Shown in pieces: positions 28,906-36,205 of a DNA stretch of 64,000 bases (positions are counted from its first letter, which is position 1; the number at the start of each line of letters is the position of its first letter). The stretch lies in contig CAWCAG010000005.1 in NCBI GenBank assembly GCA_963793425.1, forward strand, positions 1,792,001 through 1,856,000, in the 5' to 3' direction. Made by a program: the position numbers and the translations under genes. Under the pieces are notes generated by a model. That model searched no databases. It was not told where the DNA came from and saw only the letters and a list, made by a program, of their open reading frames with translations. The DNA is from an uncultured cyanobacterium. GTDB lineage: Bacteria; Cyanobacteriota; Cyanobacteriia; Cyanobacteriales; CAWCAG01.

Positions 28906-30084
28906 ATGAGTGAAGCCGATCTCCCTAACAATTCTCCCCAAGAACCCCTTCATCCTCTCCCAGAGGATGAAACTCTCCAGTCATCCACTGAAGCTATTCA
29001 GGAGGAAAACGAATCTGTTTATTCAGAAGAAACTGACCTAACGGTAGACTTCAGTGAAAGCAATGCTATTAGTGAAGAAGAAAACTTTGCTTTAAGTAGC
29101 AAACTGCGCCAGCGTAACCGCGTCTTGCTCAAGAAAGTAGCCACATTGGAAAGAACCTTAGCAGAAGCCCAGGAAGCTCTACAAGCCCAGGAAATGCGGA
29201 CGAGGGGAAACGACAACCTCCTAGCTCAACAAGCTGAGGAATTTAGCGCTACCCAAGAGCAACTAACTCGTTTATTTCGTGAGTTAGAATCTTCCCACCA
29301 AACTGCTCAACGCCAACAAATCTTAATAGAAACCCTTTCCCAACAACTAGAAAGCGCTCAAGAACGCATCAATCAACTAGAACAAGAATATACTTCCCTT
29401 CAGAAACGTAATCAGACAAAAGCCAAACAACTCCTGCAACAAGAGCAACAAAATCAAGAACTGCGTTCTCGCCTTCAACGACAGCAGCGCCGTGCTATTC
29501 AATTCAAAACTGCGTTAGATAAATGTTTGGATGTTCCCAATAGTTCTTCACCAGACAGTGGAGAAATTGAACCAACGCCAACACAAATACCAACACCAAC
29601 CCTAAGCCAAAATAAAGAAGAAACCTTCTTTCCTAAAGCTTCTCCTATTCAACCTTGGTCTGCTCAACTAGAACAAGACAGCCCTCCCACTTCAGAATGG
29701 TTGAAAGATTTGGAGCAGACTGAAAAACCAGATCAGAAAAACGATAACAACCCCAAGATAGTACCTTTAAACCTTGTTACTACCCAAGAAGAAGAAGAGG
29801 AAGTAGAAATGCCAGAAACTGAGATAGAAACCATGACCTGGCAGCCAGAATTAGTCCTCAGTTTAGAGGAAGAAGGGGGAGGAAATATAGAGATTGAAGT
29901 TGTCTCCGAACCAGTTGTTCAAGAAGAGGGGAAAGGTAGGGAGAATGAGGAAGAAGAGGAAGAGGAAGAGGCTTTATTTAATTCCTCAAGCTGGCCCTCC
30001 CCCATCCTTTATCCTCTGCGTCCCCACAAAAAGCGTAAGTCTCTCGCTGCTATAGAATTGCCTGATTTCCCCCGCTATACGTGA
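28906..30084 (+). CDS. coiled-coil hypothetical protein
   Basis: Long Q/E-rich coiled coil, QFKTALDKCL, IQPWS, C-terminal WPSP..YP.RP.KKRKSLAA.ELP.F. Confidence 0.8.
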   Translation: MSEADLPNNSPQEPLHPLPEDETLQSSTEAIQEENESVYSEETDLTVDFSESNAISEEENFALSSKLRQRNRVLLKKVATLERTLAEAQEALQAQEMRTRGNDNLLAQQAEEFSATQEQLTRLFRELESSHQTAQRQQILIETLSQQLESAQERINQLEQEYTSLQKRNQTKAKQLLQQEQQNQELRSRLQRQQRRAIQFKTALDKCLDVPNSSSPDSGEIEPTPTQIPTPTLSQNKEETFFPKASPIQPWSAQLEQDSPPTSEWLKDLEQTEKPDQKNDNNPKIVPLNLVTTQEEEEEVEMPETEIETMTWQPELVLSLEEEGGGNIEIEVVSEPVVQEEGKGRENEEEEEEEEALFNSSSWPSPILYPLRPHKKRKSLAAIELPDFPRYT

Positions 30085-30166: not shown

Positions 30167-33100
30167 TTAAAATTCAAAAAAACCTCCAACTATTCCTTCT
30201 GCAACACCTCCAACTATCCCTTCTGCAACTCCCTCAGCTATTCCTCCTATTACTCCACCAACTAATTCTTCTGTAATAGCGTCAAATGTAGCAGTTGGTA
30301 TTAAGTCAATATCTCCAAAATCAATATCTATAAACCCTCCACCTTGTTCGCCACTGAAAATATCTTCAAACCATTGCAATGAATTTTGTAATAGCAAGCC
30401 ATTGCTTCCGCCACCACCCCCAGATGAAGGTACACCTTCAGTGGAGTTACTGGATCTTCTGGCTACTGTATTTCCTTGAATTTCCTCTGAATCAGATGAG
30501 TTTTCTAAAGGTACGGGTTGATACGATTCATCTACAGGAGAAGCAGTTATATATTTCAGTTTTATCAACTCCCTAATAAGAGTAATAAGGTCTTCCTCAC
30601 GTTTTTTAGAAGAGCGCTCACTATCTTCCCGATCAGGTTCGTTATGATCTGGAGATTTCGGCTCTTGATTTTTAGCCCCATTAGGCTTGTCTTCATCTTC
30701 AGATGTTAGTTCATCAATAATTCTTCTGTAATAAGCTGACGTAATACCAACTCCAGCACCAAAACCAACACTTCCAACTACAAAAATACCAACACCAACT
30801 ATACGACCATTCAAATGACCGTCAACAATTAACCAACCAAGACGCTTCCTAAGCTTTCTGTATTCTTCGTCAGAAGAGAGCAAAGATTGAAAGTCTTGTA
30901 TACTGATCTCACTAAGCTTGGTCAATATCAGAGAACTTTGCTCTGATGAAATTGATAGTTTTTCATCTTCTAAAGATAACTTAACTACCTGAATAGCAAG
31001 ACTTTTTCTTACTTCTGGATTTGCTTTAGGTGCAATTTGATTAATAACTTTTTCTAGTAGAGATTCAACTTCTTTACTACTTATTGAGTAATTACATTCA
31101 ATAAATATCTGTTCAATAATTTGATTTATTTTCTCAATAAAAACACTATCAGCAGTCACATTTTTGAGAACAACTTGTTCAGCAGTTATTATTTCCTCTT
31201 CGCTCCCTTGAATATTTTCTCCTGATTGAATATAGTTCTCTTGAACTGACTTCTGTTTAATTGTTTGGGAGAGGTTAGTAATATATAAATTCTCAACCTT
31301 ACTATCATCTAAAACAACTTGTAATACTTGAATATTCTGTTCTCTTAATTCATCTTTTACTTGATTAATATAATTCTTATCGCCTATAGACCAAAGAAGT
31401 TGATAAGCTCTCTGTAAATATTCTTGTGCTTCCTTTTTTTGACCCGTTCCTATCCTAAGTAAAGCTTTACCTTTCAAGAAATAACCATAGTAAGCAGCTA
31501 GAAATGGATTATTCATTTTGCCATATAGCTTTAGGCACTGCTCACTCACATCCAAAGCCCTTGCGTATCGTCCTTGAGTCAGCAAAATAGAACCTAAGAA
31601 ACCTAAACAAATTGCTGTACCATGTGGATCTTCAAGCTCTCTCATTTTTGAATAAGCTTGACGAAGTGATTGACCTGCTTTCTTGTATTGACCTAGTTTT
31701 GCATTAGCTTCACCAAAATCAGATAAAGTATATGCTTCTCCAGAACGATCTTTAAGTTTTCTGAAAATAGCTAATGCTTGTTCGTAGAATTCTATCGCTT
31801 GAGCATAATTTTCTAGTTGTTTATGTCCATTTCCAATAGACTGCAAACAATAAGCTTTTGAAGATATATCATCTAAATCTTCACAAATATCTAGTGCCTG
31901 TTCATATGCTTCAATAGATTTTCTAAATTGACTTAAGGAAAGATATACACTTCCTAGCCCTCTTAATATTCTACTTTCTGCACTGCGATTACCAAGTTTT
32001 CGATAGATGTTTAGAGCTTTGGTGTAAAATTCAATAGCCTCATGAAAATGACTAATTTTATCATAGTCCATGAGCTAGATTGAACAAAACCTCTACTTCT
32101 TGAGACTCATCTTTCAGCTCTTCAAAAATTGGTAAACATAGTTCATAATAGTGAACAGATTGTTTGTATTGGTAAGTACACTGATAAGACTCTCCTAGAC
32201 TTTTCAGTGCATAAACTTCCTCAGATAAATTGTTTATCTCTTTAGCGATGTTAAGTTGTAGTTGCCGATATTCTAATGCTTTGACATAATTCTTCTGCCT
32301 ATACAAACAGGCTCCTAGCCATCCTAAAGCATTGCATTCTCTTTCTCTATTGCTAATCTTCCTAGCAAGATTTAATTGATATTCAAAATATGTTATGGCT
32401 TTTTTGTACTTCTGAGAATAAAATTGAGCTATTCCAATACTCATTAGAGCAAAACATTGAGCCGGAAAATCATCAATATTTTGAGCTATTGACAAACGTT
32501 GCTGATGACAATTTATAGATTGCTTATATTGCTCTATTAATCTGTAACTTTCACCTAAGTAACCAAGAGCATTGATTTCCTGAACAGAATCTCCAGTTTG
32601 TTTACAAAAATTTAACCAAGCTTCAAAAGTTTCTATCGACCGTTGATATTGTTGTGAAGCTTGATAACTACGGCCTAGCCATTCTAAGATACTTTTTTCT
32701 CCAGAGGTTTCTTGTGTTTCTCGTTTAATTTCTAATGCCTGTTGGTAAAATTCAGCAGCTTTTAAATACTGCTTTAAGCCAAAGTATCCACCAGCTATAC
32801 TTTGCAAAGCCTGACCTTCATCTACTTGATTGCCAAACTCTCTAGTTATAGCTAACCATAGTAAGTAAACTTCAATAGAGCTTTGATATTCTCCTAAAGA
32901 ATGCTTATTAAAACCTAAGCATCCTAAAGTATAGGCTTCACCAGCCTTGTCATTTAATTCTCTTACTACTGGGAGTCTTTGTTCATAAAACTCAGTAGCA
33001 TTCCGATATTGACCAAGAGTAGTATAGCTATCCCCCAAAGCGCATAGAGAATTAGATTCCCAAATACGATTATTAACCTCACGACTAATTACTAGCCATT

Positions 33101-33392
33101 GTTCAAAATAGTCAATAGCACGTTGATATTCTCCAAGCCCCTTATAGGAAAATCCAATATTTCCTAGTACTCCTCCTTCTGACTCACGGTCTAAAAGTTC
33201 TTTTGTAATGTTTAATTGTTGCTCAAAATATCCAATTGCCTGTTGATATTTCCCTAAAGAGTTTAAACAGCTTCCAATCATGTTAAGTGCCTGATTTTCA
33301 GACTGTTTGTTTTTAAGTTCTCTTGCAATTGATAGCTGTTGTTCAGCATATTCAATCGCTTTCTATAATTCTTCGGAGCGATTAACTGTCAT
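30167..33392 (-). pseudogene. large TPR protein (~1074 aa reconstructed) with internal two-repeat motif, Gly-rich helix and Gly-zipper tail; one in-frame TAG and one +1 frameshift
   Basis: ATG 33392 reads MTVNRSEEL*KAIEYAEQQL..., in frame with ORF 32061..33281. At ~32072 one extra base separates LFNLA from MDYDKISHFHEAIEFY (ORF 30167..32071) inside one TPR. Roughly 16 repeats of ~40 aa. Confidence 0.75.
30183..30245 (-). repeat. 24-bp in-frame tandem repeat encoding (GGVAEGIV)n
   Basis: CCTCCAACTATTCCTTCTGCAACA / CCTCCAACTATCCCTTCTGCAACT plus a degenerate partial copy. Confidence 0.75.
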
Positions 33393-33864
33393 CCCTAGAC
33401 TCCATTGATACATCACTGATCTTGAGATTCTGGACTTGCCAGTTTTTCCCTACAATCTGTTCAGACTTTCCTTTGCTCTCACTTACCTGCTTTAGTTTTT
33501 CTAATTCAAAATTTTTAGCCCGTAATCCATTTATAAACATTTGGAAAGATGAAGACTGAGCCTGTACTTGATTCACTAAAGCTTGTAGCTGTTCTGCAAA
33601 TTCTGAGTCATCTTCCATTTGTCCAATAATTTCCGCTTCTAAGACTTTAATATTATGCTTTGTTGGATTTTTTTCAGCTCTTTTTAATAATCCTGAGCTA
33701 TTTACTTGTTCCAGCTTATTTTGAATAGATTTGCGTGCAGCTTTGATTATTGCTCCACTTTTCTCCAGAGTCGCTTCACCAAGTTTTTCACCTACCTTCT
33801 CTACTGCCTTGGGCAGAATTAGAGAAGTAATGGCTCCAGCAATTACCGATATAGGATCAACCAT
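33382..33864 (-). CDS. small helical protein (Bell/HeLo-like N-terminal domain) with C-terminal pseudo-repeat motif
   Basis: MVDPISVIAGAITSLILPKAVEKVGEKLGE...DSEFAEQLQALV, then two ~22-aa repeats; overlaps the start of the TPR gene. Confidence 0.7.
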   Translation of the reverse strand: MVDPISVIAGAITSLILPKAVEKVGEKLGEATLEKSGAIIKAARKSIQNKLEQVNSSGLLKRAEKNPTKHNIKVLEAEIIGQMEDDSEFAEQLQALVNQVQAQSSSFQMFINGLRAKNFELEKLKQVSESKGKSEQIVGKNWQVQNLKISDVSMESRDDS

Positions 33865-34210: not shown

Positions 34211-36205
34211 TTAGATATTGGTTTTCAATACTACTGTTAAACCGTAGTTAAAACTTAGTAAGCGCAACCAGAGGGAAGGATAATTCTTTTCTAGATAGGG
34301 CTGTAAGCGCTTCAGCAAGCTAGGAAACCAACCTAGGAATAGCCAGCTAATTAGAGAATCGATGGTAAAAGAGAAATAAGTTCCTAACCAACGCAGTAAA
34401 TCTTTTGTACCCGCTTGTACCCAAATCCACCACAACAAACTAGGATTCATTTTTGCGGCTTTGAGAGCTAAGCGATTGAAGGTTAGCCAGTTGATTTTAT
34501 CTTTAATGAAAGTATCTGCTACTTCTGGAGGTTCATGAGCTAAAAGTCCGAAGAAAGTATTGAGCATTCCGTTAATGCGTTGGGGAGGTAAACTCTTTCC
34601 GGTGGGAACCATCATACCTTTAGAAAAAAGCCAGGTAACAGCGACATTACTCTGATAAGCGCGGATCTGATTCAAATCCTTGGTACTGAGTAAGTCATAT
34701 TTTAGGGCTGTATCAAGTAAATTGGTTAAGCGCCCTAAGTTGCGTACTAAGGAACCAAAGCCCGTAAATACCAAAGGAGACTGAAGAGAAGCCGCATCAC
34801 CAATAGCTAACAAACGATCAAAAGCAACCGTGCGATCGCGACTCCCTAAACTAAAATGTCCGGGAATGTAACCGAAAGTTGCCTTCTTCCAAACCAACTT
34901 TTCCAGGTCGCAACGGCGGTACTCCGGTAAAATTGTAAAGAAATCTTCATACATTTCTAATAAAGAGCCGGGGTTATCAGGATGGACTTGATGATAATGA
35001 AATAAATAGATAGTAAGTTCGTTGTTTGCTCCGGGAAATAACTCCCAAATTAATTGTCTTCCCCTAGAAATATCCCCGTGGGAATTCAAAACATCACCAT
35101 AGTCACTATCCCAAACTTCCGGCGCAAAACCGCTCTCTACTACTGCTCCTACCGTAGGACAAACACTATCAAAAGCACGAGTGCCATTAAGTTGCCAAGC
35201 AATCGGAGAAGCGCTGCCCATGGCATCTATCAATAAGCGTCCTTGGGCTTGTTTTGCTGTTTGTGTGGGTAAGTGAGTGAGTTGAATATTCACCTGATTC
35301 TCCCCCACCTCAGCCCGAACAAATTCCGTTTCATCCCAGATTTCTCCCCCCCTTTGACGCAATTTTTCCCCGCATAAATGCAGCAGTCGCTCTGAGTTGA
35401 GGGCAATATTTAAAACCGTAGGAGTGTGTAAAACTTTAGCTTGAAGATGAGTGGGAAGACTCTCATCAAAAAATTTATTAAAACCGTCTTTATATTCCTT
35501 GGCAATTAGACTTTCAAATTCTTCTTGAGTAAATAAACCCAAATTAATCAAGCTTTGAAACTCGCTCCGGGAAATATTCCATTCCCGATTCATTTTCCCA
35601 AAGGGCAACCGTTCTACTAATAGTACTTTATAGCCTAATTGCGCCATCACTGCGGCATGAATAACCCCTAAAGCTCCGCCGATGTAAATGAGGTCGTAGT
35701 TATGAGGAAGGGCTTGCTCAACAGGAGAAGCACGAAAGATGACTTGTTTCGGTTTTTGGGGTTTTCCGACATTCTCTCGCCAACTTTTTTCCCACCAATA
35801 AGCCCGTTGCAAATCGTATTCTCCATGGGGAATCTTTTGGAAAAATTTAACAGTTAGAGGATAGTAAGGTGCTAAGGCTTCAAAAATAGATTGTTCTGAT
35901 AAATTAATTTCCGGAGGAGCAGGATATTGACAAGGGAAATTAGTTCCTAGATCCGTAATCAAGCATCGACAAATTGTATGTTCTTGAGGAATTGAAGTTT
36001 CTCCCCAACGAAACATTTTCAAATAGGTAGTTCGTTGGACAGACCAAACAAAAATTGATAATTCTGATTCGGGAGAAAAGCATAAGCGAATACCATCAGA
36101 TGTTAAGATTTTTTTCCCCTGAGAAGGCTGCCATGTCTCCTGTAACCAATACCGTACAGCCGCTGTGTCTGGAGTAGGAACTTCTCTATAAAGAATTTCT
36201 TTCAT
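34211..36205 (-). CDS. cruA: CruA-type lycopene cyclase (FAD-dependent)
   Basis: N-terminal EVPTPDTAAVR.WLQ, YDLIYIGGALG, REWNISR, IGDAASLQSPL.FTGFGS; 664 aa fits CruA rather than the shorter CruP. Confidence 0.75.
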   Translation of the reverse strand: MKEILYREVPTPDTAAVRYWLQETWQPSQGKKILTSDGIRLCFSPESELSIFVWSVQRTTYLKMFRWGETSIPQEHTICRCLITDLGTNFPCQYPAPPEINLSEQSIFEALAPYYPLTVKFFQKIPHGEYDLQRAYWWEKSWRENVGKPQKPKQVIFRASPVEQALPHNYDLIYIGGALGVIHAAVMAQLGYKVLLVERLPFGKMNREWNISRSEFQSLINLGLFTQEEFESLIAKEYKDGFNKFFDESLPTHLQAKVLHTPTVLNIALNSERLLHLCGEKLRQRGGEIWDETEFVRAEVGENQVNIQLTHLPTQTAKQAQGRLLIDAMGSASPIAWQLNGTRAFDSVCPTVGAVVESGFAPEVWDSDYGDVLNSHGDISRGRQLIWELFPGANNELTIYLFHYHQVHPDNPGSLLEMYEDFFTILPEYRRCDLEKLVWKKATFGYIPGHFSLGSRDRTVAFDRLLAIGDAASLQSPLVFTGFGSLVRNLGRLTNLLDTALKYDLLSTKDLNQIRAYQSNVAVTWLFSKGMMVPTGKSLPPQRINGMLNTFFGLLAHEPPEVADTFIKDKINWLTFNRLALKAAKMNPSLLWWIWVQAGTKDLLRWLGTYFSFTIDSLISWLFLGWFPSLLKRLQPYLEKNYPSLWLRLLSFNYGLTVVLKTNI

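Follow-up and report, generated by a model that had tools for sequence, protein, structure and literature searches.

Gene pairs that encode a small Bell effector and an NLR receptor, and that share BASS motifs, were described by Dyrka et al. (10.1101/2020.01.06.895854). In the pairs described there, the effector is short and helical; its N-terminal helix is hydrophobic, position 3 is acidic and a motif of about 22 residues stands at the C-terminus, and the receptor carries the motif at its N-terminus. For BASS1 and BASS6, effector pseudo-repeats joined by a variable linker were reported (10.1101/2020.01.06.895854). The Bab/Agp antiphage system of E. coli includes a large protein of a different type, Agp, with the order BASS11-TPR-GreA/B-C-PIN and no NOD (Ibarlosa et al., 10.1101/2024.11.07.622273). 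In the fungal HET-S/NWD2 system of Podospora, the effector has two pseudo-repeats (about 21 residues in HET-S) with a flexible loop between them, and a NACHT-WD NLR with a single repeat, at its N-terminus, serves as the receptor. Effector-associated domains (EADs) are folded adaptors that are usually found on STAND or ternary-system NTPases (Kaur, Burroughs, Iyer and Aravind, eLife 2021, PMC8195603).

The locus analysed here lies in a stretch of 64,000 nucleotides from an uncultured cyanobacterium (hereafter the window). Three open reading frames, all on the minus strand, were found at the locus, encoding 160 aa (33864..33382), 406 aa (33281..32061) and 634 aa (32071..30167). The first is the small gene (33382..33864), the homologues of which support a putative Bell/HetE-N-like helical domain followed by two pseudo-repeats; the other two are parts of one large gene. 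From homology and the open frame in the sister genome G401, the start of the large gene was inferred to be a GTG at 33416-33414 or an ATG at 33413-33411 (33411..33416, minus strand), 35 nt inside the small gene. The genes had been predicted to overlap, and they do, by these 35 nt. The same kind of large gene follows the small gene in all four loci with readable context (the window, G401, a Stenomitos MAG and the metagenome contig L060), on the same strand and with overlaps of 35, 35, 38 and 11 nt, respectively. The layout of the partner is conserved in all four. Intact large proteins have 942 aa in G401, 1009 aa in L060 and 1463 aa in the Stenomitos MAG, and these three are the only sequence-distinct intact partners seen. 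The identity of the small protein is 69-95% across genera at the loci with NOD-less large orthologues, and the flanks of the cassette are unlike between the window and the Stenomitos MAG. No evident defence island was found around the locus, the neighbours of which encode an epimerase, a HAD hydrolase, a kinase, a pyruvyl transferase, a cyclase and a histidine kinase.

Each of the two proteins carries two repeats of 22 residues. In translation, R1 (FQMFINGLRAKNFELEKLKQVS) occupies aa 107-128 (33481..33546, minus strand) and R2 (EQIVGKNWQVQNLKISDVSMES) aa 135-156 (33397..33462, minus strand) of the small protein. R3 (LQVVLDDSKVENLYITNLSQTI) occupies aa 250-271 (31259..31324, minus strand) of the 634-aa frame, directly after the TPR array, and R4 (EQVVLKNVTADSVFIEKINQII) aa 298-319 (31115..31180, minus strand). 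The four repeats lie exactly in the nucleotide ranges given in the original prediction and align in one ungapped register; as it also said, position 2 is Q in all four and position 12 is N (R1-R3) or S (R4). R1 and R2 fill aa 107-156 of 160, so that the motif stands at the C-terminus of the putative effector. The linker between R1 and R2 has 6 residues and is variable, and that between R3 and R4 has 26. In an alignment of the small-protein family (A1), Q108, L114 and R115 of R1 and Q136 of R2 are invariant, and W142 and K148 of R2 are nearly so. The doubled effector repeat and the helical domain N-terminal to it, which is membrane-targeting in HET-S, resemble HET-S; the likeness noted here is one of architecture, and the fungal receptor differs in having a NACHT domain, WD repeats and a single N-terminal motif.

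The small protein had been predicted to be a Bell-type effector. Its homologues (n=21) have 125-164 aa and 53-100% identity. The protein starts with MVDPIS, and D3 is nearly invariant in A1. Its most hydrophobic stretch is formed by the first 19-22 residues (KD19 maximum of 1.38 at residue 1). A 'MEPIS' region and an acidic residue at position 2-3 are given as marks of the Bell N-terminal helix (10.1101/2020.01.06.895854; 10.1101/2024.11.07.622273), and a hydrophobic N-terminal helix with an acidic residue in that place is present in the small protein. The N-terminal helical domain was assigned to aa 1-105 (33550..33864, minus strand) from AF2, KD19 and hhalign. The AF2 monomer, with helices at residues 4-103 and pLDDT of about 90 at aa 41-100, is confidently predicted to be a helical bundle. 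The extreme C-terminal end is acidic and conserved in A1.

These features are those expected of a Bell protein, and with the C-terminal double repeat and the partnered relatives they uphold that part of the prediction. The family model, however, did not recognise the protein: PF20701 (Bell/HetE-N) matched none of the 18 A1 members at E <= 1, and it did match another small gene in the same genome at 26.6 bits. When the N-terminal domain of A1 was compared by hhalign with four cyanobacterial PF20701 proteins, 89 columns were aligned end to end with P 0.002, but the probability was 14% and both profiles were thin. One language-model neighbour cluster of the small protein contained 18% HetE-N members, which is a lead only. 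Fold searches of the small protein gave no HeLo, MLKL or Bab match, a weak test for small helical bundles. The small protein therefore seems to be Bell/HetE-N-like by remote evidence alone.

The relatives of the small protein are informative in this respect. The 160-aa protein was matched in 50 of 401 cyanobacterial genomes, its own genome counted. Most of these matches span the N-terminal 105 residues or so, within open frames of 124-268 aa, most relatives having 124-191 aa, and six sit inside open frames of 847-1253 aa; the family thus shows the Bell feature of a short helical-bundle protein that is rarely the N-terminus of a long receptor. An NB-ARC-type P-loop frame is present in 16 of the 29 fetched loci of relatives. 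In 11 of the 29, the last 60 aa of the small protein align (score of at least 40) with the first 80 aa of another frame, which lies downstream on the same strand in 10 of these 11. The partners in the loci L007 and L015 are NB-ARC proteins by Pfam (E 1e-17 and 1.5e-16) with the motif at the N-terminus. The small protein of the window aligns end to end with the small proteins of these canonical pairs, both repeats being in register, and R2 corresponds to the second repeat of the L007, L009, L015 and L020 proteins. These facts support the view that the small-protein family behaves like Bell effectors in architecture and gene context. With the Bell/BASS pairs the locus has in common the short helical effector with its hydrophobic N-terminal helix, its acidic position 3 and its C-terminal motif of about 22 residues, the collinear overlapping genes, the effector pseudo-repeats with a variable linker, the cyanobacterial host and the partnering of close relatives with motif-NB-ARC proteins.

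The large protein, in contrast, departs from the Bell/BASS pairs as published. Its order is a TPR array, two repeats, a helical domain, one membrane segment, a disordered stretch and a glycine-rich tail. The 406-aa frame (32061..33281, minus strand), counted from the first ATG after an in-frame TAG, holds the TPR array (Pfam TPR_12, E 1e-46). The 634-aa frame (30167..32071, minus strand) contains the last TPRs (aa 1-235) and then what we call the C-module. After R3 and R4, a helical domain is predicted at aa 320-415 (30827..31114, minus strand; AF2 pLDDT 81-93), followed by a single hydrophobic Gly-rich segment at about aa 423-446 (30734..30805, minus strand), a predicted membrane span with KD19 of 2.0 at aa 424-425 and the only stretch of at least 1.6. 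By composition, aa 456-580 (30332..30706, minus strand) form a low-complexity stretch rich in S/E/G/D/P, which varies among relatives, and the C-terminal tail at aa 581-634 (30170..30331, minus strand) is acidic and then Gly/Ile/Val-rich. Pfam found no NB-ARC or NACHT domain in the three intact orthologues (E <= 0.001) or in the two frames of the window (E <= 1), as the original prediction had it. The families that it did find, in these orthologues and in both frames of the window, were TPR-type and other helical repeats. The motif is internal in the partner, as had also been predicted, after the TPR array at aa 250-319 of the 634-aa frame; in G401, the Stenomitos MAG and L060, TPRs run from the start of the protein, and the motif is not at the N-terminus. 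The partner thus differs from those of the Bell/BASS pairs as described in having no NB-ARC or NACHT domain, in carrying the motif in two copies after a TPR array, in the helical domain, membrane span and tail that follow it, and in a much weaker cognate similarity.

The absence of the NOD, together with the internal motif, had been suggested to make this a different receptor architecture. The lack of a NOD is not a first: Agp is already NOD-less (10.1101/2024.11.07.622273), and further NOD-less partners exist within the same motif class. Like Bab/Agp, the locus combines a small Bell-related effector bearing a C-terminal motif (amyloid in Bab) with an adjacent large NOD-less TPR protein that carries the motif, and an abortive-infection outcome has been proposed for both, in the window from sequence alone. 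In the published description of Agp, however, the motif is N-terminal and single and is accompanied by GreA/B-C and PIN; Pfam found neither family in the large proteins studied here, whose motif is internal and doubled and whose predicted anchor would place the partner in the membrane. With the EADs the locus shares the principle that a small shared module couples an effector to a sensor encoded alongside (PMC8195603), but what is shared here is a repeat of 22 residues, and an NTPase is absent. Set against these reports, the novelty lies in the internal position of the motif and in the membrane module, a NOD-less partner having been published with Bab/Agp in 2024.

The large gene of the window is interrupted as assembled. 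An in-frame TAG stands at codon 18 (33363..33365, minus strand), where G401 has CAG, and one extra base relative to G401 (32066..32068, minus strand) breaks the TPR gene up, giving the 406- and 634-aa frames. The predicted TPR protein is therefore present as a large TPR gene, but not as one frame. At the TAG site, the form of the window was found in contigs of three of four metagenome runs from one study and the CAG form in one; these runs may be the source sample. The extra base is missing from contigs of all four runs. These contigs belong to related strains, as they depart from the window at 11-27 further positions. In addition, a 420-nt in-frame segment that holds the last TPRs and R3 (31268..31687, minus strand) is missing from G401. 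As the Stenomitos MAG and L060 both have the segment, it was lost by G401. Either two repeats in the partner are inessential, or the G401 copy is decaying too. Between G000 and G401, the large gene has a dN/dS of 0.18-0.47, which indicates that it was under constraint until recently. Nevertheless, the gene of the window looks damaged as assembled, and the cassette may be inactive in this genome.

One could suppose from this damage that the large gene is a decayed canonical motif-NB-ARC-TPR receptor that has lost its N-terminal part and whose internal repeats resemble the motif by chance. The TPR units are indeed of the NB-ARC-TPR kind (TPR_12, TPR_10, MalT-like), and the TAG and the frameshift would fit. 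This supposition is already contradicted by NOD-less orthologues of 942-1463 aa, which begin inside the end of the small gene and occur across genera at 69-95% small-protein identity, by the dN/dS values, and by the conservation of R3 and R4 in proteins without any TPR; we consider it hardly credible. Since the intact orthologues share the TPR-only N-terminal part and the internal motif, the absence of the NOD is not a product of decay.

The likeness between the repeats of the two proteins was analysed both directly and through other loci. In ungapped BLOSUM62 comparisons, R1 and R2 scored 20-25 against R3 and R4, a level reached by 111-381 of 1,556,807 windows from frames of at least 100 aa in the genome; clear motif-sharing pairs gave local-alignment scores of 40-127, which is a different measure. 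A profile of the small-family C-terminus found the 634-aa frame as its best non-self match among 40,691 six-frame ORFs, at E 1.2. The hhalign comparison of the two family alignments paired R1 with R4 in the predicted register (P 0.0044), a score reached by 2 of 200 column shuffles. The R3/R4 profile, on the other hand, ranked the window's own small protein 418th in the genome. Built from 14 copies and run against 373 frames of the 29 loci, it gave best E values of 1.2e-5 and 9.3e-4, and all nine top matches were small-protein C-terminal or partner N-terminal motifs of those loci. Conversely, a profile of 12 motifs from other loci gave the 634-aa frame the best whole-sequence E value (0.79) among the 40,691 frames, with R4 aligned over its full length, and left the window's small protein outside the top 25. 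The repeat sets belong to one motif family. The predicted sharing of a motif thus stands through the canonical pairs, whose motifs the R3/R4 profile finds, and is weak in the direct match. As judged from these profiles, the repeat likeness between the small and large proteins appears to exceed chance moderately, and the link through the canonical pairs, which is significant, is stronger than the weak direct one.

The weak direct similarity leaves room for another interpretation, namely that the two proteins cooperate without templating. In this case, the TPR array would bind the small protein, for instance by its acidic C-terminal end or its helical domain, and hold or release it. The repeats would be amphipathic segments, R1 and R4 being helices packed on the neighbouring domains, and their likeness would be a shared pattern. 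TPR domains commonly bind extended peptides, and A1 shows conservation at the end of the small protein. In the AF2 monomers, R1 is modelled as a helix that continues the bundle with falling pLDDT, and the confidently predicted domain next to R4 takes its first helix from the second half of that repeat; moreover, G401 does without R3. Yet the monomer models are ambiguous as to the fold of the repeats, and the model confidence across the repeat regions is low: R2 is disordered (pLDDT about 30), R3 is a hairpin (pLDDT below 40), and R2, R3 and the linkers all fall below 50. It also speaks against this interpretation that all nine top matches of the R3/R4 profile are terminal motifs of canonical motif-sharing pairs, and that the repeats stay in module relatives that have Clp_N instead of the TPR array or no array at all. 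Since they are kept in such proteins, the repeats belong to the module and not to TPR-peptide binding. Cooperation without templating therefore appears somewhat unlikely to us.

No part of the locus is as unusual as the membrane module that follows the motif; this module was absent from the original prediction. Its helical domain is conserved in 12 proteins among 1.84 billion representatives, and fold searches with it gave no informative match. The part that precedes the module can be exchanged (TPR, Clp_N or none), and so can the tail; R3 is conserved in the TPR-fused, Clp_N-fused and free-standing forms. In other relatives, the position of the tail is taken by CFI-box-CTERM: protein P0027 matches NF041770 at E 5.6e-25, and P0025, P0029-P0032 and a protein of genome G356 have the same C-terminal stretch (alignment A2). 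The C-module of the window gave no NCBIfam match; it has the module in common with the CFI-box relatives, and not the tail. In G356, the N-terminal motif of a free-standing module protein is also found in an adjacent 116-aa protein without a Bell-like N-terminus.

This last pair and the exchangeable parts could mean that the module itself is the executioner or a surface-directed device, with the span, the disordered stretch and the tail doing the work, the repeats coupling the module to a fused or adjacent sensor, and the small protein a mere adaptor or regulator. However, the small protein keeps all its Bell-like features, its relatives pair with NB-ARC proteins that lack the module, and the searches gave no fold or family hint that ties the module to pore formation. 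We regard an executioner module as quite improbable.

We prefer to read the locus as a Bell/BASS-type cassette of two genes in which the partner is unusual, a NOD-less, membrane-anchored TPR protein whose repeats would template the effector; we consider the prospects of this reading evenly balanced. According to this reading, the hydrophobic N-terminal helix of the small protein would be the likely membrane-attacking part, held inactive in the helical bundle, and sensing would probably be the task of the TPR array. The large protein would cluster in response to an event perceived by this array or by the membrane module. Its repeats might then adopt a stacked beta form, possibly amyloid, that binds and recruits the small protein's repeats and acts as their template. 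The N-terminal helix would be released into the membrane beside the anchor, which may lead to cell death or abortive infection.

Several observations count against this templating cassette. The cognate repeats are of low similarity, the window's small protein ranking 418th with the R3/R4 profile and falling outside the top 25 with the 12-motif profile, and helices are predicted in R1 and in half of R4, with low pLDDT elsewhere in the repeats. PF20701 matched none of 18 members, R3 is gone from G401, and no evident defence island surrounds the locus. The position of the motif is internal and not N-terminal, and an oligomerising NTPase that could gather copies is lacking. The value of the finding is also limited, because a NOD-less partner is in print, the cognate similarity is weak and the copy here appears damaged.

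A wider proposal can be put forward tentatively. The module of helical domain, span and tail may represent an undescribed class of membrane-anchored, NTPase-free receptors, with a templating motif in two copies placed between the membrane and a cytosolic sensor that can be exchanged (TPR, Clp_N or none), and by which a Bell-type killer would be nucleated at the membrane without a NOD. The module would then also serve a second kind of small protein, with a different N-terminal motif as the link; G356 would be an example. This proposal seems rather unlikely at present.

The locus couples the effector family and the motif family of the canonical pairs to a partner that has no oligomerising NTPase, an internal and doubled motif, and a predicted membrane anchor. 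It also provides the first context for a module that is rare and unannotated (12 of 1.84 billion representatives), some proteins of which end in the equally uncharacterised CFI-box-CTERM. If the repeats template each other, the cassette would raise the questions of how nucleation starts without a NOD and of whether the anchor places the killer at its target.

The small gene (33864..33382, 160 aa), the TPR ORF (33281..32061, 406 aa) and the 634-aa ORF (32071..30167) all lie on the minus strand of a cyanobacterial assembly of 5.28 Mb in 9 contigs. The small protein carries two 22-residue repeats, R1 (33546..33481) and R2 (33462..33397), and the 634-aa ORF carries R3 (31324..31259) and R4 (31180..31115), also on the minus strand, after its TPR array. 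Translation reproduced both the positions and the letters of the four repeats in the original prediction. The neighbourhood is no evident defence island, and the PADLOC matches at the locus were limited to TPR models of a generic kind and to HEC-01B, the latter weak (E 0.0065). The flanking genes, at 28906-30084 (+) and 34211-36205 (-), showed no Pfam family at E <= 1e-5. The former encodes an acidic protein of 392 aa with a Glu-rich stretch of low complexity close to the C-terminus and the latter a 664-aa protein, and both are kept in the sister genome (G401).

The frame 5' of the 406-aa ORF reads VMYQWSLGMTVNRSEEL, TAG, KAIEYAEQQL. In the sister genome, the small protein of which is 95% identical to that of the window, CAG replaces the TAG, and a single ORF of 942 aa starts at a GTG 35 nt within the small gene. 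Alignment of the two loci (3187 of 3424 aligned bases identical) located three differences that matter in the large gene, on the minus strand: the TAG at codon 18 (33365-33363), one extra base at about 32067 (32066-32068), which causes the break between the 406- and 634-aa ORFs, and a 420-nt in-frame segment (31687..31268), containing the last TPRs and R3, that is missing from the sister genome. The two ORFs are evidently one gene, broken in this assembly. The dN/dS values between the two genomes were 0.18-0.47 over four segments of the large gene, and this gene was therefore under constraint until recently; that of the small gene was 0.54, based on just 12 substitutions. At silent sites, the small gene (33382-33864) appeared unusually conserved, with a dS of 0.04 on the same small numbers, against 0.10-0.26 in the adjacent segments of the large gene (30170-33362).

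The region was also covered by contigs from four metagenome runs, all of one study; none of the runs listed for it is an RNA run. At position 33365, three of the four runs had the TAG of the window and one had the CAG form. The TAG occurs outside the assembly, though possibly in its source sample, and the difference could be due either to a standing polymorphism or to that sample. At 32066-32068, all four runs had one base fewer than the window. Since their contigs show 11-27 further differences from the window in this part, they come from related strains, and the frameshift is thus unconfirmed beyond the assembly; it could be an assembly error. If the TAG were the sole lesion, the ATG at 33281 would yield a nearly full-length protein. 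The copy of the large gene in this genome appears damaged.

Intact forms of the pair were found elsewhere. A MAG contig of Stenomitos rutilans has a small gene 72% identical to that of the window, followed by an ORF of 1463 aa, and in a metagenome contig of 4.1 kb (L060) one of 69% identity is followed by an ORF of 1009 aa. The overlap of the two genes asserted in the original prediction was borne out in the relatives, amounting to 35 nt in the sister genome, 38 nt in the Stenomitos MAG and 11 nt in L060. In both the Stenomitos and the L060 large proteins, TPRs start at the first residues and are followed by R3, a linker, R4, a helical region and a hydrophobic Gly-rich segment; the C-terminal part consists of a low-complexity stretch and an acidic Gly/Ile/Val-rich tail. 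In the 634-aa ORF of the window, aa 423-446 is the sole stretch with a 19-residue hydropathy of at least 1.6. Pfam assigned TPR-type and other helical-repeat families to the two large ORFs of the window and to the Stenomitos, L060 and sister-genome proteins, and found neither NB-ARC nor NACHT in the former, nor in these three intact relatives at E <= 0.001, as predicted for this partner.

It could be supposed that the large gene is a decayed gene of the motif-NB-ARC-TPR type. This was ruled out by the pair itself, which is kept without an NB-ARC/NACHT-type domain (NOD) in all four loci with readable context. Because the genes flanking the pair in the window and in the Stenomitos MAG are unlike each other, the two genes travel together.

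The small protein had been taken for a Bell-type effector. Its 21 relatives are 125-164 aa long with 53-100% identity, and Q108, L114, R115 and Q136 are invariant in their alignment, while the 6-residue linker is variable. Fifty of 401 cyanobacterial genomes, that of the window included, matched the 160-aa protein at E <= 0.001, mostly over its N-terminal 105 or so residues; the open frames holding the matches were mostly of 124-268 aa, with six of 847-1253 aa. Among 29 fetched loci, 16 had an ORF with an NB-ARC-type P-loop, and in 11 the last 60 residues of the small protein aligned with the first 80 of another ORF at a score of at least 40, this ORF being downstream on the same strand in 10 of the 11. 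The partners in two of these loci (L007 and L015) are NB-ARC proteins by Pfam. The small protein of the window is homologous over its full length to those of L007, L009, L013, L015 and L020, with both repeats in register in the multiple alignment. Gene pairs with such features are defined as Bell/BASS by Dyrka et al. (10.1101/2020.01.06.895854). The N-terminus, MVDPIS, also agrees with two features of Bell proteins described in that preprint and in Ibarlosa et al. (10.1101/2024.11.07.622273), an acidic residue at position 2-3 and the 'MEPIS' region.

Family features and NB-ARC-paired relatives favour a Bell-type protein; the case for formal membership of the HetE-N family is less strong. PF20701 (HetE-N) matched none of 18 aligned family members at E <= 1, whereas it does match another small gene of the same genome and, across 151 genomes of the order, small proteins in six. 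The hhalign comparison of the family with four PF20701-matching proteins gave P 0.002 over 89 columns, with a probability of 14%. An AF2 model showed a confident helical bundle at aa 4-103, with R1 as a helix of falling confidence and R2 without structure. Foldseek gave no match for the model at E <= 0.001 and the best VIA Z was 4.9, results that are uninformative for small helical domains. Nothing exceeded the Pfam cut-offs, NCBIfam had no match, and a PDB sequence search with the family alignment (A1) gave nothing relevant.

Two other loci of this genome, both outside the window, are worth noting. At C9:405439-405743 (L049), a second small Bell-type gene matches PF20701 at 26.6 bits, over the cut-off; a frame change divides it into two ORFs of 82 aa, a Q/N/S-rich motif stands at its end, and WD40-like ORFs lie downstream. 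At C9:52134-55514 (L003), a paralogue of the small protein (156 aa, E 0.0039) immediately precedes an ORF that has a P-loop of NB-ARC type and a TPR-like C-terminal sequence, and this looks like a canonical pair.

The central claim was that both proteins share the two-repeat motif. Ungapped scores between the repeats of the two proteins were 20-25, which are attained by 7e-5 to 2.4e-4 of windows. With a C-terminal profile of the small family, the large-gene ORF was the best non-self match among 40,691 ORFs, at E 1.2. In the register originally predicted, hhalign of R1 against R4 gave P 0.0044 and a score matched by 2 of 200 column shuffles (18.2, against 8.4 for the reversed alignment). The 634-aa ORF was absent among the matches listed for profiles of R1 alone and R2 alone. 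A profile of 14 copies of R3/R4 was searched against 373 ORFs of 29 Bell-like loci; its nine best matches all fell on C-terminal motifs of small proteins or N-terminal motifs of partners, the best at E 1.2e-5 and 9.3e-4. Conversely, a profile of 12 motifs from other loci aligned with R4 over its full length, and the 634-aa ORF had the best whole-sequence E in its genome (0.79). Two Gln residues 18 positions apart are common to all these motifs, and all long forms of the module, be they fused to TPRs or to Clp_N or free-standing, keep R3, R4 and the linker between them. At position -1 to the closing Gln of R1 and R4, three pairs have K/N and the Stenomitos pair has S/S, which hints at co-variation of the repeats.

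The R3/R4 profile, however, ranked the window's own small protein 418th, and R1 and R2 have diverged from the consensus of the family. The direct evidence for a shared motif is modest and the indirect evidence stronger; both repeat sets probably belong to one motif family, mainly through descent and transitivity. Complex prediction for R3-R4 (residues 8-92 of the module alignment A2) with residues 100-160 of the small protein, run without controls, scored 0.02 and 0.22 (mark, 0.32) and counts neither for nor against the link. The main rival explanation is a genuine partnership of the two proteins without templating. It accords with the weak direct similarity, and the matches to the motifs of canonical pairs speak against it; we regard it as rather unlikely.

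The remainder of the large protein was analyzed as a module (aa 245-634). A search of 1.84 billion representatives with it returned 12 proteins at E <= 0.001. Besides that of the window itself and a TPR fragment, these are two carrying Clp_N at the N-terminus (confirmed by Pfam for P0025), several of 311-450 aa starting with a short Q/N-rich motif or two repeats, and two isolated tails. A common C-terminal stretch ends six of the 12 and one protein of another cyanobacterial genome (G356); in P0027, it matches the CFI-box-CTERM domain of NCBIfam, on which a literature search found no paper. The module core matched 2 of 400 other genomes. One match, in G310 (E 5.7e-4), fell in a helicase-like ORF of 1111 aa and was set aside as spurious. 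In G356 (L047:5958-7538), a 116-aa protein precedes a 384-aa module protein made of the helical domain, the membrane segment and CFI-box-CTERM, and the same short Q-rich motif begins both proteins. This is a second, different kind of motif-sharing pair on the same module.

AF2 was confident just for the helical domain of the module, in the first helix of which it placed the second half of R4; R3 was modelled as a hairpin with pLDDT < 40. Foldseek found no match for the model, and the best VIA Z was 5.5, to small winged-helix-like domains, results that are uninformative for small helical domains. NCBIfam gave no match and an Atlas search no usable match for the window's module. With the module core, a 'longer' homologue search returned 3 proteins and a metagenome scan no relative. 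A full-length search with region 1060-1463 of the Stenomitos protein returned zero matches, its own family included, probably because low-complexity words swamped it.

The lack of a NOD, together with the internal motif, had been put forward as a different receptor architecture. The former is not new: Agp, a TPR partner without a NOD, is already published, and its amyloid signalling action is shown experimentally (10.1101/2024.11.07.622273). Further partners with this class of motif were seen in our loci. In G148 (L035:4294-9326), whose small protein is the closest outgroup (45% identity), the small gene is followed by one for a 390-aa protein with an N-terminal motif and an FGE-sulfatase domain; the partner in L009 combines the motif with TPRs, without NB-ARC in its first 484 residues; and the L013 and L031 partners gave no NB-ARC match. 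Partners without a NOD are thus no rarity in this motif class. The gene for the FGE-sulfatase-domain protein is succeeded in G148 by a convergent ORF of 1122 aa that has P-loop motifs of helicase-like type. In the literature search and a term search of PMC12261475, as far as these sources were covered, no doubled internal motif or membrane-anchored partner was described. The motif tables and extended-data alignments that supplement the two preprints (2020 and 2024) may bear on this point and might already include the motif or the gene pair.

We give about an even chance to the reading that a Bell-type effector is coupled to a NOD-less, membrane-anchored TPR partner via repeats of one motif family. 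In such a system we infer a beta/amyloid state of the repeats, together with its trigger and outcome. The architecture is unusual and conserved, but family members are few, the cognate repeats resemble each other only weakly, and the copy in this genome appears damaged.
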